DNA of 64,000 bases from Candidatus Kryptoniota bacterium (GTDB taxonomy: Bacteria; Bacteroidota; Ignavibacteria; Kryptoniales; JAKASW01), in contig JBJKPC010000003.1 of assembly GCA_046706745.1 (NCBI GenBank), positions 1,280-65,279 on the forward strand, in the 5' to 3' direction. The notes beneath the pieces were generated by a model that saw nothing but the letters and a program-made list of their open reading frames with translations, ran no database searches and was not told where the DNA came from. Made by a program: the position numbers and the translations under genes. This document shows, one piece after another, positions 2,635-14,580 of the stretch (position 1 is the stretch's first letter; every line of letters starts with the position of its first letter).

Positions 2635-2904
2635 AATGACTTTCCCGCAACATTACCTATCTCGGATACAGCTAACGCCACAATATAATAAAAGAGAGCA
2701 AGCGATCGCACATCCTGGATACGGAGGCAAGTCTTTCTCCCGATCTATACAAAAAAATCTCTGAAGGGCAGCCTGCTTCGTCTGGACAAGTAATACAAAG
2801 TTTCTTATCATAAATACAGTTCAAGGCATTGCGGCCTTTATCGCCGGACACGGACATCACGCTCCGGAGAGGATCGCGAGGCTTCCACCAAGAAGGAGAA
2901 CGTG

Positions 2905-3312
2905 ATGGCGTTGTTTGACTGGAGCGATGAATACAGTGTCCGTGTAACCGAAATGGACGAACAGCATAGAAAGCTTGTCGCGTTGATCAACGAGCTGAGC
3001 GAGTCTATTGGGAATGGGAACGAACATGAGGTCATTAAGCAGACACTCGACAAACTGCTGGATTACACGGCGTACCACTTCTTAACAGAAGAGCGTCTCC
3101 TCGAGAAGAACGGGTACCCGGGGTTGCGCAAGCAGAAAGAAGAGCACGATACACTGTCATGGCGGGTCCTCGATATGAGAAGCAGATATTACAGCGGTGA
3201 GGGTGTGGAGCCGAATGAAGTGCTGGTTTTTCTCACGGGTTGGCTGAAGAATCACCTTCTCTTCTCCGACAAGCAATACGCTGCTTATCTCAACTCTAAG
3301 GGAGTATTTTGA
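2905..3312 (+). CDS. bacteriohemerythrin (hemerythrin-like metal-binding protein)
   Basis: MALFDWSDEYSVRVTEMDEQHRKLVALINEL... and the later YTAYHFLTEERLL and EEH motifs are the classic hemerythrin His/Glu ligand pattern. AAGGAG lies 6 nt upstream of ATG 2905 (the ORF track starts at GTG 2902). Confidence 0.9.
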   Translation: MALFDWSDEYSVRVTEMDEQHRKLVALINELSESIGNGNEHEVIKQTLDKLLDYTAYHFLTEERLLEKNGYPGLRKQKEEHDTLSWRVLDMRSRYYSGEGVEPNEVLVFLTGWLKNHLLFSDKQYAAYLNSKGVF

Positions 3313-3479
3313 TCCATTGCACGGCCGCGCAAACCGTAATGCAGGCGAAGGACCTATTGCCCACCATGCGCCGACGGGATGCTGACGTAAGCACCGGAGA
3401 AATCGAGAATATATAGTGAAGCCTCCCTTGGGCGGATATGTCTGCCGACTCTCAGGGATTTCAGGATTCTCTCGCCCCT

Positions 3480-4979
3480 CTATCTGATCGTCATTACCTG
3501 TTCTTCGAAGATCTTCCGAAAATGGAATCCGTATATCGCGAAGGTAATTGCGAGTGGGAATAGTTTCGGCCTCGTAAACAGTGACCAGAAGAACAGGCGC
3601 CAGTAATAGACCCGCTCTTTCGCGATGACCCCGAGCAGAAGCGTGGATTTCAGAAAAGCCTTGATGTCGGCGGCGCTGACTCTGAATACTTTAGCTTGAG
3701 GCGGTTTGAAATCGCGCATAAAATTCTTCACCCGGTGATAATACTCTTTCGGCGAGTAGATTCTGCCGACGATGCTTTTGTAACCGTCTATAAGAATCTC
3801 GCGGTTCATCTTCGGGATGAAGTTCATTGATAAATCGGTATTGTTTCCCGAAAAAACGTGAAGGAGCCTCCCCTCGCTCATGAGCCTCTTGTACAGTTTG
3901 GTCCCTTTTGGAGCGTTCAGAAGTCCGACCATTGCAGTCACGATGCCCGTGTCCTGAATAAATTCGGTCAGCCGATCGAAAATCTGAACGGGGTCGACAT
4001 CGAACCCGACTATGAAACCGCCCTGAACCTGCATACCAAACCGCTGGATCTTCCTGACACTCTCGGCGAGGTCCCTGCTCTTGTTCGGGATCTTCTTGCA
4101 TTCCTGCAGGCTTTCCTCATTTGGGGATTCAATCCCGACGAACACTGCGTTGAATCCGGCCCGGACCATCAGTGTCATCAACTCTTCGTCGTCAGCGGAA
4201 TTCAGAGATACCTCGGTATTGAAATAAAACGGATGTCTGTTCCTGTCCATCCATTGAATGACCGAAGGAAGGATCTCCTTCTTGAGCTTGTTTCTATTCC
4301 CGATAAAGTTGTCGTCGACGAAAAACACGCTCCCTTTCCAGCCCTGGTTACGCAAGCTGTCGAGTTCTGCGATCACCTGTTGATTCGTCTTTGTCCGCGG
4401 AACTCGGCCGTAAAGCACCGTTATGTCGCAGAATTCACAATCGTACGGACAACCCCTCGAATACTGGAGATTCATGGAGGCATAATTCTTGAGTTTGATC
4501 AGGTCCCACTTCGGCACAGGTGTGGAGGACACGTCAGCAAAGTCGGAGGATGAATAGAAGTGTTTCGGAGTGCCGAGGGCGAGATCATCGAGGAACGGCT
4601 TCAGCGTGATTTCCGCCTCGTTCAGCACGAGATGATCGACCTCATCGAACTCATCGTAATAAGAGGTGAACAGCGGGCCGCCCGCTACGGTCTTGCGTCC
4701 GAGCTTTCTGCATCGCGTTATCACCGCTTTAGCGGACTCCCTTTGCACCGTCATCGCACTTATGAAAACGTAGTCCGCCCATTCTATTTCTTCGTCGGAC
4801 AGTGAGTCCACATTGAGATCGACGAGCTTCTTTTCCCATTCATCGGGCACCATCGATGCAACGGTTAGGAGGCCGAGCGGCGGGAATGCCGCCTTCTTCG
4901 AAATGAATTTCAACGCGTGGCGAAAACTCCAGAACGTATCGGGGTAACGCGGATAGACGAAAAGAATCTTCATTGGCAT
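3480..4979 (-). CDS. B12-binding-domain radical SAM protein with DUF4070-type C-terminal tail
   Basis: 499 aa. The N-terminal KILFVYPRYPDTFWSF...PLGLLTVASM is a cobalamin-binding-domain pattern. The CxxxCxxC cluster is SRGCPYDCEFCD. The C-terminal hydrophobic tail (YYWRLFFWSLFTRPKLFPLAITFAIYGFHFRKIF) is typical of this subfamily. Confidence 0.9.
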   Translation of the reverse strand: MPMKILFVYPRYPDTFWSFRHALKFISKKAAFPPLGLLTVASMVPDEWEKKLVDLNVDSLSDEEIEWADYVFISAMTVQRESAKAVITRCRKLGRKTVAGGPLFTSYYDEFDEVDHLVLNEAEITLKPFLDDLALGTPKHFYSSSDFADVSSTPVPKWDLIKLKNYASMNLQYSRGCPYDCEFCDITVLYGRVPRTKTNQQVIAELDSLRNQGWKGSVFFVDDNFIGNRNKLKKEILPSVIQWMDRNRHPFYFNTEVSLNSADDEELMTLMVRAGFNAVFVGIESPNEESLQECKKIPNKSRDLAESVRKIQRFGMQVQGGFIVGFDVDPVQIFDRLTEFIQDTGIVTAMVGLLNAPKGTKLYKRLMSEGRLLHVFSGNNTDLSMNFIPKMNREILIDGYKSIVGRIYSPKEYYHRVKNFMRDFKPPQAKVFRVSAADIKAFLKSTLLLGVIAKERVYYWRLFFWSLFTRPKLFPLAITFAIYGFHFRKIFEEQVMTIR

Positions 4980-5076: not shown

Positions 5077-5105
5077 TTGACAGCATCGGAATCGTGTGTT
5101 AGTTT
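5077..5105 (+). promoter_or_regulatory. sigma70-like promoter of the tetR/ABC operon (-35 TTGACA, 17-nt spacer, -10 TAGTTT)
   Basis: Perfect TTGACA at 5077..5082, a 17-nt spacer, then TAGTTT at 5100..5105. It lies 56 nt upstream of the first tetR ATG candidate (5161) and 71 nt upstream of the annotated start (5176). The -10 box is weak. Confidence 0.45.
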
Positions 5106-5110
5106 ATTCC

Positions 5111-5130
5111 TAAACCGACCGGTCGGTTTA
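5111..5130. promoter_or_regulatory. perfect 20-bp palindrome TAAACCGACC|GGTCGGTTTA, candidate TetR operator
   Basis: I verified the reverse complement as identical over all 20 nt. It lies 6 nt downstream of the putative -10 box, the classic position for an autorepressing TetR operator. Confidence 0.55.
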
Positions 5131-5175
5131 TTTATAAACTTGTACGTGACGAAATGCCGGATGGAGAGGCGGCGT

Positions 5176-5781: not shown

Positions 5782-6617
5782 TGAGGGCTCTGAAGATGAC
5801 TATGCTGAGAAATACAATCCATTCCTTCGATGGGAAATCGAGCCGGGGATTCTTCCGCTCTTGGATTCCGGTGGAGACGTTTCTCCTGTTGGTGACTTTA
5901 TCTCTAGGCGGGGAAATCTACTCGAACGCTTACGCCCAAACCCCGAAGGAGATCATTCAACGGGCGGAAGACGCCATCAAAGGCAAGATCTCGAGCCATT
6001 CTATCATGGAGATGATCATCAAGACTCCCGACTATACGCGCTCCATGAAGATGGAAAGCTGGACGAGCGGAACGTCGAAGGCGCTCGTAAAAATTCTTTC
6101 GCCGGTACGCGAAGCCGGCAACCGCACTCTCAAGCTCGGAAACGATATCTGGATGTACCTGCGCAACACCGAAACCACGATCCGCATCCCCCCTTCCATG
6201 ATGCTTCAGTCCTGGAACGGTTCGGATTATACATACGACGACATGGTCAGGGAGGAGACACTTTCGAAGGACTACGACATAACGATCGTCGGAACCGAGA
6301 AAATTGGCGGTGTGGAATGCTGGAAGCTCCAGCTTCTCCCGAAGCCGAACGCACCCGTGGTATGGGGAAAGATCCTCTACTGGGTGCGCAAAGCGGACTC
6401 CTTGCCTCAGCAGGTCGAGTACTTCGACGAAAGGGGTAAGCTGATGCGTACAATGGTGATGAGCGCTTTCAGGGTCATGGGCGGTAGACTGATACCGACT
6501 GACTGGACGATGTACAATGCCGACAAGACGCATTCCACCGAGATAAAAATTGAAAAGGCGTCGTTCGATCAGAGAATACCGAGCAGCATTTTTTCGCTGA
6601 GAGAACTGGAGAGGTGA
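5781..6617 (+). CDS. LolA-like outer-membrane lipoprotein-sorting (periplasmic carrier-like) protein
   Basis: The start ATG overlaps the tetR stop (TAATG). A signal peptide ends ...SNAYAQTP. The body (KISSHSIMEMIIKTPDYTRSMKMESW...LKLGNDIWMYL...SDYTYDDM) matches my recollection of the LolA_like family that accompanies FtsX-type ABC exporters. The 5325 start in the ORF track overlaps tetR in another frame. Confidence 0.7.
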   Translation: MRALKMTMLRNTIHSFDGKSSRGFFRSWIPVETFLLLVTLSLGGEIYSNAYAQTPKEIIQRAEDAIKGKISSHSIMEMIIKTPDYTRSMKMESWTSGTSKALVKILSPVREAGNRTLKLGNDIWMYLRNTETTIRIPPSMMLQSWNGSDYTYDDMVREETLSKDYDITIVGTEKIGGVECWKLQLLPKPNAPVVWGKILYWVRKADSLPQQVEYFDERGKLMRTMVMSAFRVMGGRLIPTDWTMYNADKTHSTEIKIEKASFDQRIPSSIFSLRELER

Positions 6618-6636
6618 TGAAGAAAGCTCCGAACCA

Positions 6637-6757
6637 CAAATACCAAATTCCAAACAGAACCCAATTTCGAAACTCCAATCCACAAAGGAAACGAAGCGAG
6701 CTCTGTCTCCGGAAGTCAGGGTTTGTTATTTGGAGCTTGTTTGGAGCTTGGTATTTG
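6637..6757 (+). repeat. long-range inverted repeat in the lolA-like/permease spacer (arms 6637..6656 and 6738..6757)
   Basis: I paired it by hand base by base, giving 18 Watson-Crick pairs, 1 G-U and 1 A-C mismatch over 20 positions. The left arm is CCAA/TCC-rich and the right arm carries the TTGGA repeats. The 3' arm ends 35 nt before the permease A1 start codon. Confidence 0.6.
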
Positions 6758-6792
6758 GAACTTGGAACTTCCCCTGTGCGAGCAACGACTCC

Positions 6793-8022
6793 ATGAAACT
6801 CCTCATTCGAATTGCCTGGCGCAGTCTCTGGCGAAATCGGAGACGCTCCATCCTCGCCATTTCGGCGATCGCATTTGCCGTGGCTTTGGCTATTGTCAGG
6901 CTCGGCTTCGACGACGGCGTATTCGCTCTCTCGCTGAGGACCGCGGTCAGATCATCTACGGGCTATCTGCAGATCCAGAAGACCGGTTACAACGAAAACC
7001 CGACCCTTCAAAAAAGCTTCACCGTAGGTCCACGCATCGAGTCCGTATTGGAGTCCGATCCCGCGCTCAACGGCAGCTCCCCTAGGATCCAGGCGGGCGC
7101 GCTTATCAGCTACCGCAATCAATCACTCGGAGTAATGATAACGGGGGTCGATCCGAAAACGGAGGACCTCATCACCGATTTCCCCAAGAAGGTGATCGAC
7201 GGGAGATTTCTTGCGAGCGATTCGACTCCCGACATCGTGGTTGGATACAAGCTCCTTAGAAATCTTCGGGCTCAAGTCGGCGATTCGGTCGTTGTTCTTG
7301 CGCAGGGATTCGATGGCGTTCTCGACAATATGTTTGTACGAATAGTCGGGACCTTCAGGACCGGTTCCGACGAGTTCGACCGCACCGGTGCTTTCATGAG
7401 CATCCCGGTTCTGCAGAATTTCCTCTCTATGGGCAAGAGGATCAATGCCCTGGCGCTGTCGGTGAAGGATCCCTCGGACGCGGAAAGGATCGCCGGTTCA
7501 CTCGATCCGGTTCTCAAACCACTTGGACTTGTGGCGGTACCCTGGGAAAGACTTCTTCCGCAGCTAAGGCAAACCATGAGTTTCAGCCATGCCGCTCATT
7601 TGATCTTTCTGATACTTTTATTCATAGTGGTCGGCTTCGGTATACTCAACGCCCTGCTGATGTCGGTCACCGAGCGCTTCCGGGAGTTCGGCGTAATGCT
7701 TTCAGTTGGCATGTCCAACCTGAAGCTAGCCGCGACTGTAGCCATAGAAATAGTATTCATGATCCTGATAGGTTTCGTGGTCGGCAACGTCGTCGGAGGG
7801 GGGCTTAATTACTACTTTGCCGTCCATCCGATCGTTATGGGAGGCAACATAGCAGCGTATGTTCACGAGTGGGGGTTTCAGCCGATTGTCCCCTCTTCCC
7901 TTTCTCCCGGAATCTTCGTCACCGCAGGTCTGATCGTGGCCGCAATATCGGTGCTCGCAGCAGTGTATCCGCTGTGGCGTGTAGCAAAGCTGGAGCCGTT
8001 GAAAGGCATAAGGTACACTTGA
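6793..8022 (+). CDS. ABC transporter permease, FtsX/MacB family (paralog A1)
   Basis: The N-terminus MKLLIRIAWRSLWRNRRRS is the FtsX-family signature. A large periplasmic domain follows, then the C-terminal FtsX TM bundle (ILNALLMSVTERFREFGVMLSVGMS). The start is taken at ATG 6793, M22 of the track ORF. Confidence 0.9.
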   Translation: MKLLIRIAWRSLWRNRRRSILAISAIAFAVALAIVRLGFDDGVFALSLRTAVRSSTGYLQIQKTGYNENPTLQKSFTVGPRIESVLESDPALNGSSPRIQAGALISYRNQSLGVMITGVDPKTEDLITDFPKKVIDGRFLASDSTPDIVVGYKLLRNLRAQVGDSVVVLAQGFDGVLDNMFVRIVGTFRTGSDEFDRTGAFMSIPVLQNFLSMGKRINALALSVKDPSDAERIAGSLDPVLKPLGLVAVPWERLLPQLRQTMSFSHAAHLIFLILLFIVVGFGILNALLMSVTERFREFGVMLSVGMSNLKLAATVAIEIVFMILIGFVVGNVVGGGLNYYFAVHPIVMGGNIAAYVHEWGFQPIVPSSLSPGIFVTAGLIVAAISVLAAVYPLWRVAKLEPLKGIRYT

Positions 8023-8250
8023 AATGAAATTCGCAATCATAAATTCTGAACTCGAAACAAATGCTAATTCCAAAATATCATATTCCTGTCCAAACTCGTC
8101 TCTCGGTTGTTTCGGAATTTCGACTTTTGGATTTTGGACTTGTCCCGCTCAATTATCGTATATGGGAATGCGGGATACTGTAAGCCGGAATTTAGGATTT
8201 GGAGTCTCGTGTTTAGGCTTTTTGAATGGGATGACAAGGGGGACTTTAAA
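8023..8250 (+). other. conserved inter-permease spacer element, copy 1 (non-coding; candidate structured leader or internal regulatory element)
   Basis: Over the 231 nt of 8024..8254, which span this spacer, there are 40 mismatches and no indel against 10875..11105 (manual alignment). It is richer in TCC in the 5' half and GGA in the 3' half. It ends in AAGGGGGA-N7-GTG, the start of permease B1. Confidence 0.6.
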
Positions 8251-9480
8251 GTGATCGGCATAATTGCCTGGCGCAACATACTCAGAAACAAACGACGGTC
8301 CCTGATCCTGATCGCGTCCATAGTGGTCGGGGTTGTCGCCCTGGTCCTGACGGAAGGATTTGCCGTCGGGATGCTGCACCAGATGCTGACGAACCAGATC
8401 GGTGCCGATGCGGGATATATCCAGATTCACAGGAACGGGTACCAGTCGGATCCGACGCTCGATAATTCAATGAGCGATCCGCAGGCAATTCGGAAAATAC
8501 TGCGGAAAGAATCCGGCACGCTGAACTACGCCGAGCGTCTCAGGGTGTTCGGACTCGTCAGCAGCGCTTACAACTCGTATGGAGTGTCGATCGTGGGGAT
8601 TATCCCTAAAGAGGAGAAAAAGATCTCTACAATTTCGAAATATGTCCTCAAGGGAGCGTATCTCTCGGGAGAACCGGGGCAGATACTGATAAGCGCTTCC
8701 ATTGCGGAGAAGCTTAGGGTCGGACTCGGCGACAAGATTGTGATCATGGCGTCCCGGGAAGACGGCAGCATCGGCTCAGAGGCATGCAGGATAACGGGCA
8801 TTTACGAAACCTACAACTCAGGTTTCGACCAGTCCCATGTTTATATTCCCATGCAGACTGCCGTACAGATGCTCGATGCGAAAGGACTCGTTTCCGAGTT
8901 CGTAGTGAACCCTCTCGACCCCCAAAAAACCGACCTTGTTGCAGAAACCATCCGGCACGAGGTGGTAGAGTTGCGAGGTCCGAACCACTACGAGGTTCTT
9001 ACCTACGAGCAAATGCTCCCGTTGCTGGTCTCGCAGCTGGCGCTTTACAAGGAGGCTCTTTATCTTATCTCGGTTATCATCGCAATAGCTCTCGTCTTTG
9101 GAATAGTCGACAGTATGATGATGGCAGTTATGGAACGGACACATGAATTCGGCGTGTCGATGGCCATAGGAATGGCAAGTAACAAGATTTTCACAATGGT
9201 GATGACCGAGGCTTTTTTTGTCGCAGTCATAGGAACCGCAATAGGCGTCGCCGCTTCTTATGGAATCATGATCCCACTTTCGCACACAGGCTGGAATCTA
9301 TCGATGTTCTCAGACAGCATGAGATCAGTCGGCGTAGGAAGCGTCATTTATCCCGCGTTCAATGCCTCGGTACTGATGCAAAGCGTCGTCATAATCCCGA
9401 TCGTGACGCTCCTCGGGGCGATTTATCCGGCGTTGAAAGCGATCAAGCTGCAGCCTGTAGACGCGATAAGAGCAGTCTAA
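8251..9480 (+). CDS. ABC transporter permease, FtsX/MacB family (paralog B1)
   Basis: GTG 8251 is preceded by AAGGGGGA. The N-terminus (V/M)IGIIAWRNILRNKRRS is followed by a periplasmic domain and then the FtsX bundle (VDSMMMAVMERTHEFGVSMAIGMA). The track ORF starts further upstream at TTG 8107, inside the spacer. Confidence 0.85.
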   Translation: MIGIIAWRNILRNKRRSLILIASIVVGVVALVLTEGFAVGMLHQMLTNQIGADAGYIQIHRNGYQSDPTLDNSMSDPQAIRKILRKESGTLNYAERLRVFGLVSSAYNSYGVSIVGIIPKEEKKISTISKYVLKGAYLSGEPGQILISASIAEKLRVGLGDKIVIMASREDGSIGSEACRITGIYETYNSGFDQSHVYIPMQTAVQMLDAKGLVSEFVVNPLDPQKTDLVAETIRHEVVELRGPNHYEVLTYEQMLPLLVSQLALYKEALYLISVIIAIALVFGIVDSMMMAVMERTHEFGVSMAIGMASNKIFTMVMTEAFFVAVIGTAIGVAASYGIMIPLSHTGWNLSMFSDSMRSVGVGSVIYPAFNASVLMQSVVIIPIVTLLGAIYPALKAIKLQPVDAIRAV

Positions 9481-9482
9481 AC

Positions 9483-9510
9483 TGGAATATTAGAATTATG
9501 GAATATTGTC
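9483..9510 (+). repeat. 8-nt phased repeat TGGAATAT-TAGAATTA-TGGAATAT starting 3 nt after the B1 stop
   Basis: Read directly. The unit-initial T falls at 9483, 9491 and 9499. A second doublet, TGGATTGA-TGGATCAT, lies at 9585..9600. Confidence 0.7.
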
Positions 9511-9628
9511 CGAAGGACGCTTCGGGGACTAATGTTGAGACACGCAGAACGCGTATCGAAATCCCACACTTCGCGGGAGATTCCTGGATTGATGGATCAT
9601 ACGGCGACGGCAAGCTGAAGGAGCTGAC

Positions 9629-10873
9629 ATGCTGCTGATTCGACTGGCGTGGCGGAGCTTGTGGCGAAACTGGAGGCGATCGATCATAGCGATGGCGGCG
9701 GTTATTTTTGCCATTGCCTTGTCTATAATTCAACGAGGCATGCAGTATGGAACCTACGCCGAGACGATCAGTACCGCGGTCCGCGCATCAACCGGTTATC
9801 TACAAATCCAAAAAGAGGGCTACAACAAGAGTCCGACGCTCGAGAAGAGTTTCGTTATGACGCCCGCCATAGAGAAAGCCATAGAGGATTCACATTCCAT
9901 CGACGGAAGCTCACCCAGAATCGAAACGGAGGCTCTTCTGAGCTACCATGACCAGTCGCTCGGCGCCATGATAATGGGAGTGGCGCCAAAGACGGAGGGG
10001 GAGGTGACCGATTTCCCGAGCAAAGTAGTGCAGGGACGCTTCCTCTCCGTCGATTCATCGGCCGCCGAAAGCAACGTGGCCCAAATCGTCGTGGGCGACA
10101 AACTACTGCAGAATCTGGGCGCGCAGGTCGGGGACTCCGTGGTTGTGCTCGCACAGGGATTCGACGGAATGCTGGGCAACATGTTTGCCAGGATAGTGGG
10201 CACTTTCAGGACCGGTTCAACCGAGTTCGACCGGATGGGCGTCTTCATGAACATCCATTCTCTCCAGGATTTCCTAAATATGGGAAACAGGATAAATGCG
10301 ATCGCGATATCTGTAAGGGATCCCAATGATATTCAACGACTCTCCGAGAAGCTGAGCAGGACGCTCAAGACCCGGGGACTGGTCGCACTCCCCTGGCAGG
10401 ATCTTCTGCCGCAACTTAAGCAGATGATAGAGCTTGACGACTCAAGCGGCGTGCTATATATAATAATACTTCTTTTCGTCGTGGGCTTCGGAATCCTCAA
10501 TACCGTGCTTATGTCGATCACCGAGCGTTTCAGGGAATACGGCGTAATGCTTTCACTCGGCATGTCGCAGGAAAAGTTAGTGCTGGCCGTTGCGCTGGAA
10601 GTTTTCTTCATGCTGGTAATCGGGTTCATCGTCGGGAACGGCATCGGTGTAGCCGTTAACTACTACTGGGTTCACCATCCTATTGTGATCGGCGGAGATA
10701 TGGCAAAGCTATATCAGGAGTACGGATTCGCTCCCGTCTTCGTGTCTTCCCTTTCGTTCAAGGTATTTCTCGATTCGACTCTGACGATCCTCGGGATCTC
10801 TGTAGTAGCCGCCGTTTACCCGCTCTGGCGTGTCCTGCGTCTGGAACCGCTGAAAGGTATAAGGTACACTTGA
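9629..10873 (+). CDS. ABC transporter permease, FtsX/MacB family (paralog A2)
   Basis: MLLIRLAWRSLWRNWRRS..., with GAAGGAG 6 nt upstream of the ATG. It is co-linear with A1 throughout. Confidence 0.9.
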   Translation: MLLIRLAWRSLWRNWRRSIIAMAAVIFAIALSIIQRGMQYGTYAETISTAVRASTGYLQIQKEGYNKSPTLEKSFVMTPAIEKAIEDSHSIDGSSPRIETEALLSYHDQSLGAMIMGVAPKTEGEVTDFPSKVVQGRFLSVDSSAAESNVAQIVVGDKLLQNLGAQVGDSVVVLAQGFDGMLGNMFARIVGTFRTGSTEFDRMGVFMNIHSLQDFLNMGNRINAIAISVRDPNDIQRLSEKLSRTLKTRGLVALPWQDLLPQLKQMIELDDSSGVLYIIILLFVVGFGILNTVLMSITERFREYGVMLSLGMSQEKLVLAVALEVFFMLVIGFIVGNGIGVAVNYYWVHHPIVIGGDMAKLYQEYGFAPVFVSSLSFKVFLDSTLTILGISVVAAVYPLWRVLRLEPLKGIRYT

Positions 10874-11101
10874 AATGAAATTCGACGTTCTAAATTCGAA
10901 ACTCGAAACAAATATTAATTCCACAATTTCATGTTCCTCTCAAAGCTCATCTCTTAATTGTTTCGGAATTTCGACTCTTGGATTTTTGATTCGTCCCGCT
11001 CAATTATCGTATACGGGCATGCGGCATGCCGCAAGGCGGCATTTAGGATTTAGAGTTTCGTGTTTGGACTCTTTGAACGGGATGAAAAGGGGGACTTTCG
11101 A
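10874..11101 (+). other. conserved inter-permease spacer element, copy 2
   Basis: Same length and boundaries as 8023..8250 (TGA-A-ATG at the 5' end, GTGA overlap at the 3' end), at about 83% nt identity. Confidence 0.6.
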
Positions 11102-12316
11102 GTGATCGGCACAATTGCCTGGCGAAACATACTTCGCAACAGGAGGAGGTCGTTCATCCTCATACTTTCGATCATGGTCGGCGTTATCGCAATGATACTC
11201 ACCGATGCGCTGTCGATAGGCATGGTCCGTCAGATGCTGGTGAACCAGATCGGGGCGGACGCCGGTTATATACAGATACACAAGCTAGGTTATTTTACCG
11301 ACCCTGCACTCAAGAACTCAATCGTCTACACCGCCCCTGTTCGCACCGCACTCGCCCCGGACAGTGCCGGATGCAATATATCCGAACGCCTTAGGACATT
11401 CGGCCTGATCAGCAGTGCCTACAATTCGTCAGGCGTCTCGATCGTCGGTATAATTCCGCATGAAGAAAAACGAGTGACTACGGTGCACAGCTACATTGTG
11501 AATGGAACATATCTCACAAATACTCCCGGTAGTATAATCATCAGTACGACTACGGCGGAGAAATTGAAAGTGGGGCTCGGCGACAAAGTAGTTATTATGG
11601 CCTCACGCATCGGAGGAAGCATCGGGTCGGAGGCATGCCGCGTGGTCGGGCTCTTCGAAACTTTCGATTCCGGATTCGACCAGACGCATGTTTATATTCC
11701 GCTTCAGACCGCACAGCAGATGCTCGGCGCTCCGGGAAGAGTATCCGAATTCGTGGTCAATCCGGTCGATGCCCAGAAGACAGACGCAATTGCTGCCCGC
11801 CTCAGAAACGATCTTCCGTCGGGTTTTGAAGTATTGACTTACAAACAGATGCTTCCACTTCTGGTTATGCAGACCCAGCTGTACGACGAGATGATCTATT
11901 TCTTTTATGCAATCATAGCCATTGCCCTCATCTTCGGCATAATCAACACCATGTTGATGGCAGTGATGGAAAGGACGCACGAGTTGGGAATCGATATGGC
12001 GATCGGCATGTCTCACAGGCGAATTTTCGCGATGATACTGATCGAAGCATTTTACCTGGGTCTCGCCGGCACCGCGGTCGGGCTTGCGATCTCCTTCGCT
12101 ATTTATATTCCGCTCGCACACAGCGGATGGAACCTGGCTGCGTTCTCCGAGAGTCTGAAATCGATAGGAGTCGGGACGACTATTTACCCCGTCCTTACGG
12201 CATCGTCGCTGATCAACACGATAGTGATTATCCCCTTTGCTGCCGTATTGGGGGCGATCTACCCGGCAATACGCGCGATAAAGCTGCAACCGGTTGACGC
12301 GATCAGAGCGAGTTAG
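11102..12316 (+). CDS. ABC transporter permease, FtsX/MacB family (paralog B2)
   Basis: GTG 11102 is homologous to the B1 start. The sequence reads (V/M)IGTIAWRNILRNRRRS...INTMLMAVMERTHELGIDMAIGMS. The track ORF begins at GTG 11060. Confidence 0.85.
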   Translation: MIGTIAWRNILRNRRRSFILILSIMVGVIAMILTDALSIGMVRQMLVNQIGADAGYIQIHKLGYFTDPALKNSIVYTAPVRTALAPDSAGCNISERLRTFGLISSAYNSSGVSIVGIIPHEEKRVTTVHSYIVNGTYLTNTPGSIIISTTTAEKLKVGLGDKVVIMASRIGGSIGSEACRVVGLFETFDSGFDQTHVYIPLQTAQQMLGAPGRVSEFVVNPVDAQKTDAIAARLRNDLPSGFEVLTYKQMLPLLVMQTQLYDEMIYFFYAIIAIALIFGIINTMLMAVMERTHELGIDMAIGMSHRRIFAMILIEAFYLGLAGTAVGLAISFAIYIPLAHSGWNLAAFSESLKSIGVGTTIYPVLTASSLINTIVIIPFAAVLGAIYPAIRAIKLQPVDAIRAS

Positions 12317-12356
12317 TGGAATGATGGAACAATGGAATGTCGGAATAATGGGAACT
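12317..12356 (+). repeat. five phase-locked 8-nt units TGGAATGA-TGGAACAA-TGGAATGT-CGGAATAA-TGGGAACT
   Basis: Read directly. The first unit starts on the base after the B2 stop codon (TAG 12314..12316), and units begin at 12317, 12325, 12333, 12341 and 12349. Confidence 0.8.
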
Positions 12357-12517
12357 CTGATTTTAGGATCGACGGGTTTATACGTTAAAGAGGGATGTCT
12401 CAACCGGTGGTCTCGACTAGTCCGCTTTTTTTATCCGGGAAATAAGCGAGAATTTGAACGCACGAAGCTGAGCGGTAACCGGCCACAGCTGACTGCGAGG
12501 CAAGGAGCAACTTAAGC

Positions 12518-13222
12518 ATGAACTCAAGGAACACAAATGAAATCGTCCGCGTCGAAGGCGTGAGAAAAGTTTATCAAGATAACGGAGTACCGGTGGACGC
12601 ACTGCGCGGGATCAATCTCACCGTTTCATCGGGTGACTTCTCGGTTATTGCTGGTCCGTCGGGGTCGGGAAAGACAACTCTCCTGAACATTGTCGGCACG
12701 CTCGACAAGCCTTCCGAAGGGAAGGTGTTTCTCGATGGAGAGGACGTGGCATCGAAGTCCAGACGAGAACTCGCCGATATAAGGTTGAGGAAGATCGGTT
12801 TCGTCTTCCAGGCCTACAACCTCAACCCCGTTCTGAGCGCTCTGGAAAACGTGGAGTTTACGATGATGCTTCGCGGTATCGATTCCGCGGAGAGGAAACG
12901 TAAGGGTCTTGCCCTGCTCGAGGAGCTCGGCATTGGTGAACTCGCCCACAAGCGCCCAAACGAAATGAGCGGCGGCCAGCAGCAGCGTGTCGCCATCGCG
13001 CGCGCAATCTCCAACGATCCGCGGCTCGTCCTAGCCGACGAGCCTACTGCCAACCTCGACTCCGAAACGTCGGACAGGCTTCTGGACCTCATGGAAAAGC
13101 TCAACCATGAAGACGGGATAACGTTTGTATTTTCGTCCCACGACCCGCAGGTCATCGAGCGTGCGCACAGGCTGCTCATACTTAAAGACGGCCAGATAGT
13201 GACTGACAAGGTCAACGCGTGA
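12518..13222 (+). CDS. ABC transporter ATP-binding protein (LolD/MacB-type)
   Basis: Walker A GPSGSGKTTLLN, signature LSGGQQQRVAIARA, Walker B LVLADEPTANLD and an H-loop SSHD. Confidence 0.95.
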   Translation: MNSRNTNEIVRVEGVRKVYQDNGVPVDALRGINLTVSSGDFSVIAGPSGSGKTTLLNIVGTLDKPSEGKVFLDGEDVASKSRRELADIRLRKIGFVFQAYNLNPVLSALENVEFTMMLRGIDSAERKRKGLALLEELGIGELAHKRPNEMSGGQQQRVAIARAISNDPRLVLADEPTANLDSETSDRLLDLMEKLNHEDGITFVFSSHDPQVIERAHRLLILKDGQIVTDKVNA

Positions 13223-13224
13223 CG

Positions 13225-13300
13225 GATGAAGATGGGATAGTGGAAGAGTGGAATATTGGAACGGTGGAATGATGGATTGCGGGTTTGATGGAGTGCAGGT
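13225..13300 (+). repeat. about nine phase-locked 8-nt units of consensus TGGAANNN
   Basis: GATGAAGA-TGGGATAG-TGGAAGAG-TGGAATAT-TGGAACGG-TGGAATGA-TGGATTGC-GGGTTTGA-TGGAGTGC. The unit-initial T falls at 13233, 41, 49, 57, 65, 73 and 89. The array begins 3 nt after the ATPase stop (TGA 13220..13222). Confidence 0.8.
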
Positions 13301-14580
13301 TGCGCATTTGTCGGCATAAGCAAAAAGAAATAAGGCGGTTGTTTCGCCGTCCATTCCCAGTATGCCGTGATCGCGCGCCGAAGTGCGGCGTTTCGTCACG
13401 CAGGCGAGTTCCGTTCTCCTTTTTCCTTTTCCCGGTTCTCTGTCTCTTCGGAGTCTCCTCCGCCTTCGCGCAAACGCCGCTTTTCCCTGGAACCGAACTG
13501 AATTTCTCCGGCTATGTCATGGAAATGCCGGTGTATGAAAACATCCAACAGACGTTGGCCCAGCTGACAAACACATCGAGTTCCGGATTTGAGAATCTCG
13601 CCAGATTAAGACTCCGGCCAACCCTGCACATCGGCGACAATACGAAGATTGGTCTCGAATACGAGATCGACGGACTGTATCACTCCGAGAATGTCTCATT
13701 CGGTTTGATCGCAACGACTCCCCTACGGCAGGTAGTCAGCCTGCGCTGGAGCCCTGTCGACACCAGACATGTAACAGTTTCCGACTATGTCGACAGACTC
13801 TACCTTGACGAGGAATTCTCTTTCGGAAAGTTTGTCCTCGGAAGACAACGTATAAGCTGGGGAGTCGGGCGCGTATGGCAGCCGACCGATATTTTCAATC
13901 CAATAAATCCCGCCAACTTCGGCAAAATCGAAAAAGACGGAGCCGACGCTGCCTCGATGAAATTCTACCTCGGACAGCTCACCGATCTTCAACTTGTCTA
14001 CAATGCGGAATATCATTTCAGCTCTTCGAATTACGCAGCAAGATTCAGGACCAATGTCTTGGGATACGATCTGGCCGTCCTGGGCGGATCGGTTGACCGG
14101 AGGCTCATCGGTGGAGGAGATTTTGCAGGCAATGTCTGGACCGCAGGGATACGTGGGGAAGCGCTTATATCGCAGGATCCTTCGAAGTCGCACGACTATT
14201 ACATAAGATGGATACTAGGAATGGATTACCAGTTCACGGACAAACTCTATGCACTATTCGAGTACTATCACAACGGACAGGGTACTCTCAACCGTTTTGC
14301 ATACGATTTAACCGGCCTTTATGAAGGAAGGATCCTCAACGTCGCGAAAGATTACCTCGCGTTGAGCGGGACGTACCAGCTGACGTCCCTGGTTACCGTG
14401 ATGCTGTCATCCATTTCAAATTTCAATGACGGAAGCGGTTATATCTCCGGTACCGTCAGCTATTCGGCAAGCGACAACGCGTCGCTTGCTATCGGTTCGC
14501 TTTATGCTTTCGGAAAAACATTCACCGAATACTGGTACTATCCTCAGGCCTACTACATAAAACTTGAAACTTATTTCTGA
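13288..14580 (+). CDS. outer-membrane beta-barrel (porin-like) protein of unknown function
   Basis: A signal-like segment RRRVPFSFFLFPVLCLFGVSSAFAQ is followed by alternating beta-strand-like sequence, a GRQRISWGVGRVWQPTDIFNPINP motif and a C-terminus ...YYIKLETYF (terminal Phe). The start codon is uncertain (ATG 13288 or TTG 13339), and the N-terminal extension overlaps the repeat array. Confidence 0.7.
   Translation: MECRLRICRHKQKEIRRLFRRPFPVCRDRAPKCGVSSRRRVPFSFFLFPVLCLFGVSSAFAQTPLFPGTELNFSGYVMEMPVYENIQQTLAQLTNTSSSGFENLARLRLRPTLHIGDNTKIGLEYEIDGLYHSENVSFGLIATTPLRQVVSLRWSPVDTRHVTVSDYVDRLYLDEEFSFGKFVLGRQRISWGVGRVWQPTDIFNPINPANFGKIEKDGADAASMKFYLGQLTDLQLVYNAEYHFSSSNYAARFRTNVLGYDLAVLGGSVDRRLIGGGDFAGNVWTAGIRGEALISQDPSKSHDYYIRWILGMDYQFTDKLYALFEYYHNGQGTLNRFAYDLTGLYEGRILNVAKDYLALSGTYQLTSLVTVMLSSISNFNDGSGYISGTVSYSASDNASLAIGSLYAFGKTFTEYWYYPQAYYIKLETYF

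Follow-up and report, generated by a model that had tools for sequence, protein, structure and literature searches.

The two permease pairs of a transporter operon in the Kryptoniota bacterium studied here are each joined by a spacer of 228 nt, and on balance this spacer is read, with somewhat more confidence than doubt, as a hairpin-prone intercistronic insert with a relay ORF that preserves the coupling of the upstream permease gene (A) to the downstream one (B), and that was converted between the two junctions and has been constrained since. The evidence comes from the window, which is the whole stretch of 64,000 nucleotides that was analysed, and from the corresponding operons of related genomes.

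The operon and its two spacer copies

The operon has the gene order TetR, LolA-like, A1, B1, A2, B2, ATPase and OMP, with all genes on the + strand, and this synteny is kept in about a dozen genomes. The genes that flank the spacer are permeases of the MacB_PCD and FtsX type according to Pfam, and one copy of the spacer lies at each of the two A-to-B junctions, A1 to B1 (j1) and A2 to B2 (j2; Table 1). The public annotation over-calls B1 from a GTG at 8209 (P0001, 423 aa), and in the public annotations of these genomes generally the start of the B permease is wrong by 14 codons and the relay ORFs are missed. The Shine-Dalgarno-like AAGGGGGA of B1 is invariant in window j1, window j2 and j1 of L010, the locus of the closest relative (B1 81% identical). 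As B has a good Shine-Dalgarno sequence of its own, an independent initiation of B is possible. The operator of TetR is likely a separate palindrome at 5101-5140 that is dissimilar to the spacer, and GGA, a CsrA-type site, is frequent in every gap of the operon.

Table 1. Positions of genes, spacer copies and spacer elements in the window
Feature	Position	Strand	Details
Related element in the gap LolA-like to A1 (6618-6792)	6617..6796	+	CA-rich and GT-rich arms, TTTGGAGCTTG tandem repeats
Permease A1 (MacB_PCD + FtsX)	6793..8022	+	stop TGA 8020-8022; Pfam PF12704, PF02687; 74-85% identity to orthologues of relatives
Spacer copy 1, junction A1 to B1	8023..8250	+	228 nt; 79-80% identical to L010 junction-1 spacer, one 1-nt indel
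Relay ORF 1 (putative)	8024..8254	+	76 codons; ATG 1 nt past A1 stop (TGAaATG); TGA overlaps B1 start (GTGA, -4)
A/C-rich 5' arm	8026..8086	+	heptamer-like units AAAyTCn; inverted repeats I7, I1
G/T-rich 3' arm region	8114..8230	+	nGArTTT units
Shine-Dalgarno-like AAGGGGGA for B1	8236..8243	+	inside relay ORF, 7 nt before GTG
Permease B1	8251..9480	+	GTG start at 8251; N-terminus VIGIIAWRNILRN aligns with residue 1 of orthologues
Permease A2	9629..10873	+	from ORF list and comparison with relatives
Approximate gene-conversion tract, junction 2	10847..11131	+	spacer with up to 27 nt from the A2 end and 7-30 nt from the B2 start
Spacer copy 2, junction A2 to B2	10874..11101	+	228 nt; L010 equivalent junction spacer-free (TGAgATG)
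Relay ORF 2 (putative)	10875..11105	+	76 codons; spacing as relay ORF 1; block-shuffle P about 0.02-0.03
Permease B2	11102..12316	+	GTG start at 11102

A sequence-only reading had pointed out that two segments of this operon have equal length and align without indels at about 83% identity, and the exact comparison confirms it: 8024..8254 and 10875..11105 both measure 231 nt, and their gapless alignment has 40 mismatches (25 transitions and 15 transversions), i.e. 82.7% identity. When the two A-spacer-B units are compared along a sliding window, as that reading had proposed, identity reaches a plateau of 0.78-0.90 over about 7981-8310, whereas it is mostly 0.40-0.78 in the gene bodies. Its estimate of about 60% protein identity for the flanking paralogs was likewise accurate (61% for A1/A2, 62% for B1/B2), and so was the remark that the DNA diverges again within about 30 nt on either side, which is seen both in the sliding window and in the four-taxon site patterns described below. 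At fourfold degenerate sites the paralogs are saturated, with identities of 0.33 (A1/A2) and 0.27 (B1/B2). Less remains of the best-conserved core that had been quoted. Both of its strings occur in the window only at the two spacer sites, with about zero matches expected, but among the three long homologues the core is statistically no better conserved than the remaining spacer; substitutions are uniform along the spacer (chi-square p 0.47), and the longest invariant run is 15 nt where 13.3 are expected (p 0.29).

The putative relay ORF

Each of the two similar segments coincides precisely with a 76-codon ORF that runs from ATG to TGA, and the spacer is therefore more than plain non-coding DNA. 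This bridging ORF, with spacing of the coupling type at either end, is the main feature of the anatomy, and the sequence-only reading had passed over it. In relay ORF 1 the frame has no stop codon, whereas the two alternative frames contain 8 and 2 (block-shuffle P about 0.012-0.015). The peptide itself is under no selection: mismatches between the spacer copies fall on the three codon phases as 12/15/13, pN/pS is 0.54-0.84 and equal to that of the off-frames, and the nominally synonymous sites of the relay ORF are far less diverged than the flanking fourfold sites. The relay peptide has no homologue among 5.8 billion proteins, matches no Pfam family and contains no hydrophobic segment (maximum 19-residue hydropathy below 1.6). 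In L010 the frame at j1 is open for 69 codons and ends 20 nt before B, and relay peptides from other genomes show no relationship in either sequence or length. That the frame stays open between j1 and j2, which differ by no indel, is unsurprising by itself (P 0.2-0.34).

A related element lies in front of A1, in the gap that follows the LolA-like gene. It carries a relay ORF of 59 codons, the ATG of which overlaps the LolA stop (TGATG, -1) while its own stop overlaps the A1 start (ATGA, -4). With a profile built from the long spacer copies, nhmmer finds this element on the minus strand (6658-6771, E 3.7e-6). The element is 76% identical to its counterpart in L010, and the two differ by two indels that are each 21 nt long, so that the frame is kept.

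Bridging ORFs in related operons

Related operons were found with the permease B1 sequence as query, and they come from Kryptoniota-like/'Bacteroidetes' MAGs; a metagenome scan with B1 gave at least one fragment, of 1.3 kb, among the matches listed. Orthologues of A1, B1, A2 and B2 are 71-91% identical across the genomes, but the paralogs are about 60% identical in every genome, and the duplication that gave rise to A1B1 and A2B2 is therefore older than these lineages. The A-to-B gap varies widely between them. It measures -4 to +1 nt in L005, L008, L017, L020 and at junction 2 of L010, and in these spacer-free relatives the A stop and the B start overlap or stand 1 nt apart. The gap is 42 nt long in L001, L002 and L004, 76/84 nt in L006, 139/199 in L018, 160/176 in L022, 177 in L016, 181/188 in L003, 227 nt at junction 1 of L010 and 228/228 in the window. 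The spacer length, which thus ranges from 42 to 228 nt between genomes, does not change by whole-unit copy number, and according to TRF the operon gaps show only periodicities of 7-16 nt and the A-B spacers no array. A block A-ATGAAATTC... opens most spacers, a G/T-rich 3' block TTTAGGAyTTrGAGTyTCGTGyTTAG is common to the long spacers of the window, L003, L006, L010 and L022, and the profile of the long copies detects the spacers of L003, L022, L018 and L006 at E values of 1e-3 to 1e-6.

All intra-operon gaps of the 13 loci that were kept have been surveyed for bridging ORFs. An ORF was taken as bridging if its start lay no more than a few bases from the upstream stop and its end fell on or beside the downstream start; the counts are for gaps of at least 60 nt, and the bridging criteria were set after the first cases had been seen; in the null model, bases were shuffled within blocks of 12 nt, by which the local composition is preserved. 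For LolA to A (3-6 or 123-306 nt) and for A to B (-4 to +1, 42 and 76-228 nt) the gap sizes are bimodal, and they are sizeable in all cases for B to A and B to ATPase (26-232 nt). A bridging ORF is found in 5/5 LolA-to-A and 8/11 A-to-B gaps, hence in 13 of 16 where 1.2 are expected (P 1.8e-14), and if only one gap per homology family is counted, 7 of 9 are bridged with 0.7 expected (P 9e-8). The B-to-A and B-to-ATPase gaps served as controls and contain bridging ORFs in 2 of 14 cases (0.6 expected, P 0.11). The spacings of the bridging ORFs are the canonical ones of coupling, -4, -1 and +1, and stop codons are depleted in the forward frames (combined p about 0.006) but not in the reverse frames (about 0.6). 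Among the bridged gaps are also the mutually unalignable ones of L016 and L018 and the REP-like LolA-to-A1 gap of L006, which has an ORF of 108 codons. Bridging is not universal, as three long A-to-B spacers fail the strict test (L010_j1, L003_j1 and L022_j2). Judged by these counts and spacings, formerly coupled junctions share the bridging ORF as a property of the whole family.

History of the spacer

In L010, a spacer homologue of 227 nt is present at j1 only; its identity to each of the window copies is about 79%, with one indel of 1 nt, and j2 reads TGAgATG. Four-taxon site patterns group the A and B genes by ortholog nearly throughout (e.g. 21:2, 38:2 and 25:0 per 120 nt), and this ortholog signal holds except over the final ~27 nt of A and the first 7-30 nt of B. 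The first four codons of B2 in the window, GTG ATC GGC ACA, match those of B1 in the window (GTG ATC GGC ATA), unlike those of B2 in L010 (ATG ATC AGC AGG), and it is from about codon 11 onward that B2 groups with its L010 ortholog. These patterns indicate that the spacer is younger than the gene duplication and was copied between the junctions by gene conversion through short conserved flanks. The distances among the three copies are 0.175, 0.206 and 0.21, and as the copies are roughly equidistant, the copying took place at about the time of the split between the window lineage and L010 and is hence not recent. A recent gene conversion confined to the spacer, which had been one of the explanations offered at the outset, is therefore correct as to conversion, with a tract that adds at most about 30 nt per flank, and incorrect as to its age, given that the copies differ from each other by 17.5% and from L010 by about as much.

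In four of the five genomes that have two long spacers (window, L003, L006 and L018), the spacers cluster by genome. Within-genome identity is 0.80 in L003, 0.82 in L006 and 0.62 with gaps counted in L018, and 0.38 in L022, where the spacers are not homogenised. The two junctions have thus been homogenised independently in L003, L006 and L018 as well.

Constraint and structure

The spacer is clearly conserved beyond its surroundings. The identity between window and L010 at j1 is 0.80, compared with 0.50-0.51 at the fourfold sites of A1/B1 and with 0.61 in the B1-to-A2 gap that served as control (15% gap columns). Purifying selection on the spacer, the other explanation that had been offered, is borne out by this comparison, and the objection that the spacer might be no more conserved than the synonymous sites of its neighbours does not hold. 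By Jukes-Cantor distances, the ratio of the spacer rate to that of fourfold sites is 0.29, and the two spacers are more alike than the neighbouring genes because the spacer was copied after the duplication and has since changed only about 0.29 times as fast as synonymous sites. The constraint is diffuse and spread evenly over the 228 nt. An open frame by itself would remove just a few percent of the substitutions, and since an open frame together with an approximate hairpin cannot yield a ratio of 0.29, some additional constraint remains.

The putative hairpin would be formed by the spacer arms, which consist of degenerate, mutually complementary heptamers, A/C-rich in the 5' half and G/T-rich in the 3' half. 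Inverted repeats connect 8026-8046 with 8188-8208 (I7) and 8057-8086 with 8114-8143 (I1), equivalent ones exist in spacer copy 2 and in the LolA-to-A1 gap (I2, I10), and the 3' arm region contains an inner GC hairpin (GTCCCGC 8142-8148 / GCGGGAT 8170-8176). At other loci, the 5' arm of the profile hits 3' arms on their reverse strand. The constant orientation of the arms was considered as a sign of an RNA-level role and rejected, as the reverse complement of a palindrome made of a CA-arm and a GT-arm has the same layout.

When whole spacers are folded, the two window copies reach z-scores of -0.2 and about -1.1 and are no better than shuffles, and z-scores of -2 to -3.3 are found for L003_j1, L010_j1, L018 and L006_j2. 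For the three long homologues, RNAalifold predicts a closing helix between the last codons of A with the stop and the GUG of B, and a CUUUUU/GGGGGA helix that covers the Shine-Dalgarno sequence of B. Covariation, which had been suggested as a check, does not go beyond shuffles in these three homologues: compensatory changes affect 1 of 76 pairs and the shuffle control is equally good. Paired columns are less variable than unpaired ones (22% vs 39%, p 0.007), a comparison that is biased, since these sequences also served to derive the structure. According to arm-swap duplex energies, all 5' arms pair with all 3' arms, whether cognate or not. Partial compensatory changes are found in the LolA-to-A1 hairpin, where the window has CCAAATTCC/GGAGCTTGG and L022 has CCAGGCTCC/GTAGCCTGG. 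The comparison with Rfam, also proposed beforehand, gave no match in the spacers at gathering thresholds for the whole window or at E values up to 10 for 6400-12800. An RNA hairpin in the spacer is plausible but unproven. A small RNA and a leader structure, both named as candidates by the sequence-only reading, are not supported: no Rfam family is matched, the window folds equal shuffles, and covariation is absent. An internal promoter, its third candidate, fared no better, as a sigma-70 promoter and terminator scan gave 11 promoter-like matches compared with 8.7 +/- 2.5 in shuffles and no enrichment of terminators.

A probable relay between the permease genes and its alternatives

Going by the geometry of the junctions and the survey statistics, from which coupling is inferred, the relay ORF probably passes ribosomes between the permease genes. 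The insertion would have landed in a junction that was translationally coupled at first, with the relay ATG standing where B started ancestrally (TGAaATG). A ribosome that ends A may then re-initiate at the relay AUG, melt the hairpin while it crosses the spacer in translation, and terminate on top of the start of B, where B would be re-initiated. By this route the hand-over from A to B would be preserved, as it is with overlapping codons in the spacer-free relatives, and the 228 nt of intercistronic RNA, being kept translated, would be shielded from Rho-dependent polarity. The relay peptide itself would be irrelevant in this process. It is established knowledge, as summarised in a review (PMC12548453), that efficient coupling requires the spacing to be very short and that RNA left untranslated is open to Rho.

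It is also conceivable, though unlikely, that the spacer is a structured cis-acting RNA, such as a processing site for RNase III/E, a stabiliser of the mRNA or a hairpin hiding the Shine-Dalgarno sequence and start of B until A is translated (coupling by RNA unfolding), and that the open frame is a by-product or a merely secondary requirement. The complementary arms and the stable folds of several relatives fit such an RNA, as do the two helices predicted by RNAalifold at the end of A and the start of B, the lower variability of paired columns and the partial compensatory changes of the LolA-to-A1 hairpin between the window and L022, and it could account for the constraint at the nucleotide level that the ORF leaves unexplained. 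On the other hand, the window copies are no more stable than their shuffles, covariation equals the control, the test of paired columns is biased by the origin of the structure, arm pairing is generic rather than cognate-specific, no Rfam family is matched, and a structured RNA leaves unexplained why bridging ORFs are restricted to formerly coupled junctions. A separate transcription or regulation of B from an internal promoter or a DNA-binding site is very unlikely. The spacer holds one weak sigma-70-like match (8052-8081, 9/12) and a stretch, GTCCCGCTCAATTATCGTATA, that is identical in j1 and j2, but the promoter-like matches are within the range of shuffles, the identical stretch is within chance length, and the likely TetR operator lies elsewhere and is unlike the spacer.

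Rather more doubtful than an RNA element, yet with a number of observations in its favour, is a selfish or neutral palindromic DNA of the MITE/REP-like kind that spread recently to the relative as well as to the two junctions, in which case the likeness of the copies would reflect their youth and the open frame a survival filter. Its presence or absence differs by junction and by genome, the substitutions are uniform and the distances among the copies star-like, A/GTGA stands at both ends like a target duplication, related arms are found at different junctions (A to B in L018, LolA to A1 in the window), and REP-like units are present in the LolA-to-A1 gaps of L006 and L017. Against it, 283 kb of sequence, drawn from about a dozen genomes, contained no copies beyond the LolA-to-A1 and A-to-B gaps of the operon, and the plasmid and phage collections contained no match to the spacer; moreover, the copied tract includes the first codons of B, as homologous conversion would predict and transposition would not, and as the j1 site and its flanks are orthologous in the window and L010, independent insertions at the same site would be needed. 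A genuine small protein encoded by the 76 codons, e.g. an accessory subunit of the transporter, is highly improbable. Neither copy has its frame interrupted, the context of the ATG is good, and in L010 the frame is open over most of its length, but the flat codon phases and pN/pS values that equal those of the off-frames argue against a selected peptide, as do the lack of any homologue or Pfam match in the collections searched and the low hydropathy; in addition, relay peptides elsewhere are unrelated and the ORF is wholly absent from some relatives. The relay ORF as a means of preserving the coupling of A and B is thus the reading that is retained here.

Relation to known systems and meaning

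The description that fits the spacer best, by analogy, is that of a MIRU-like palindromic insert which preserves coupling and carries a relay ORF, the mycobacterial MIRU being its closest known analogue. MIRUs are units of 40-100 bp that often form tandem arrays and are dispersed over dozens of loci. The spacer, in contrast, is a single imperfect palindrome of 228 nt with a periodicity on the scale of 7 nt, and in 283 kb it is confined to the gaps of this operon. It also belongs to a different phylum, and no homology would be expected at such a distance. In layout, as far as the published summary describes MIRUs, both lie between co-oriented genes of an operon and contain a small ORF that runs in the direction of its neighbours and ends, at a spacing of -4, on the start of the downstream gene. 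According to that summary (PMC12548453, citing Supply 1997), MIRUs insert at start codons, their internal ORF is coupled at -4 and the effect on the host gene is minimal. Bicistronic designs and coupling by termination and re-initiation are similar in that the downstream Shine-Dalgarno sequence lies inside the upstream ORF and that the ribosome removes inhibitory structure (PMC12548453). Unlike the bicistronic design, which is an engineered leader at the 5' end, the spacer is a natural relay of 76 codons between genes and would involve two serial hand-overs, from A to the relay and from the relay to B.

The history of the spacer resembles the concerted evolution of tandem paralogs, as a short tract was homogenised that ends in short conserved flanks and the ortholog signal is kept elsewhere, but the converted segment is unusual in being a non-homologous insertion, and the process is seen again and again, in at least four lineages whose spacers all differ. 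Imperfect palindromes in transcribed intercistronic DNA are likewise known from intergenic palindromes of the REP/BIME and ERIC types in operons (e.g. malE-malF) and from the Rickettsia palindromic elements. As far as is known, the latter persist only where the reading frame is kept open. All these families are high-copy and dispersed, and REPs are untranslated 3' stabilisers, whereas the spacer is spanned by an ORF and showed no dispersal in the 283 kb.

A more far-reaching proposal, which is speculative and rather doubtful at present, is that Kryptoniota-like bacteria hold undescribed operon-internal modules, namely hairpin inserts with a relay ORF that are actively maintained at formerly overlapping gene junctions in a heteromeric transporter. 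The sequence of such modules would be selected for the translation ratio of A and B or for the fate of the transcript, and repeated conversion would keep the junctions alike, given that one setting is needed by both permease pairs.

The value of coupling between neighbouring bacterial genes is still debated, and this operon offers a natural comparative test of whether coupling is valuable enough for a coupled junction to tolerate an insertion of up to 306 nt only when an ORF ferries the ribosomes across. The contrast between formerly coupled junctions (13/16 bridged) and never-coupled ones (2/14) stands within one operon, where it would usually need engineered constructs. For the family of Kryptoniota-like operons, the finding also means that a 'conserved non-coding spacer' can come from conversion and diffuse constraint, with neither a riboswitch nor a small RNA being needed, and if the relay reading is right, it would extend the idea of the MIRU to bacteria outside the mycobacteria.

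Elements and reading frames in the other gaps of the operon

The gap between the LolA-like gene and the first permease gene, A1, contains a hairpin element (6618-6792) that is related to the spacer between permeases A and B and has tandem repeats (TTTGGAGCTTG). It is 76% identical to its counterpart in the closest relative, L010, and its 3' arm nearly matches the A-B spacer of another related locus, L018 (GTTTGGAGCTTGGTATTTGGAAC). The gap is spanned by a relay ORF, i.e. a frame that begins at or near the upstream stop codon and ends at or near the downstream start codon (see table). Such frames also cross the LolA-A1 gaps of L006 (108 codons) and L017 (44 codons, TTG start). In these two gaps (L006 4310-4618, L017 1251-1376), a short REP-like palindrome with no relation to the element of the window is repeated several times, as CACCCTTTCAGGGTG or variants of it. 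A bridging ORF is found in the gap between B2 and the ATPase gene as well, but, unlike in the window, this gap has none in 8 of the 9 other surveyed genomes. TGGAAy-rich 16-nt repeats (TGGAATGACGGAACAA; TGGAATAGTGGAACAG) occur in the gaps of the operon other than LolA-A1 and A-B (12317-12351 and 13228-13301, also 9481-9510), and GGA motifs are common throughout, being present in every gap.

Gap-spanning reading frames and publicly called permease B start codons in the window
Feature	Position	Length	Spacing, 5' end	Spacing, 3' end
Relay ORF, LolA-like to A1	6617..6796	59 codons	-1	-4
Bridging ORF, B2 to ATPase	12321..12515	64 codons		
B1 start as called	GTG 8209			
B2 start as called	GTG 11060			

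Upstream palindrome and permease gene content

Directly upstream of the TetR gene lies a near-perfect palindrome of 40 bp (5101-5140; AGTTTATTCCTAAACCGACC / GGTCGGTTTATTTATAAACT), the arms of which are 85% complementary with zero spacer, and which is likely to be an operator for the operon's own repressor. Among the relatives, L001 has a single permease pair (7001-9113), A1B1, with the ATPase gene directly behind it, so the A2B2 pair was either lost or never fixed in that genome. In L020, a 3.7-Mb ENA/NCBI contig, the first permease gene is broken into calls of 146 aa and 261 aa (2746-3991), owing either to a frameshift that made it a pseudogene or to a fault in the assembly; the Logan assembly of the same organism, L021, has an intact first permease of 414 aa (2747-3991).

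Start of permease B and end of permease A

The public calls for B1 (P0001, 423 aa) and B2 (P0052, 418 aa) are 14 codons too long at the 5' end and begin within the spacer; according to the orthologue alignment, translation starts at GTG 8251 and GTG 11102, respectively. GTG is used in the window and at the A1-B1 junction of L010, ATG in the remaining genomes.

Permease A ends with the conserved codons ATA AGG TAC ACn TGA (8008-8022 and equivalents in relatives). In L003 and L022, the Arg codon near this end is CGC, and the relay ATG overlaps the stop codon (ACATGA). The AAGG of the final codons lies about 10 nt upstream of the following start codon, which is the relay ATG in the window and the ATG of B in spacer-free relatives, and judging from this spacing, the codon choice at the 3' end of A may double as a Shine-Dalgarno element.
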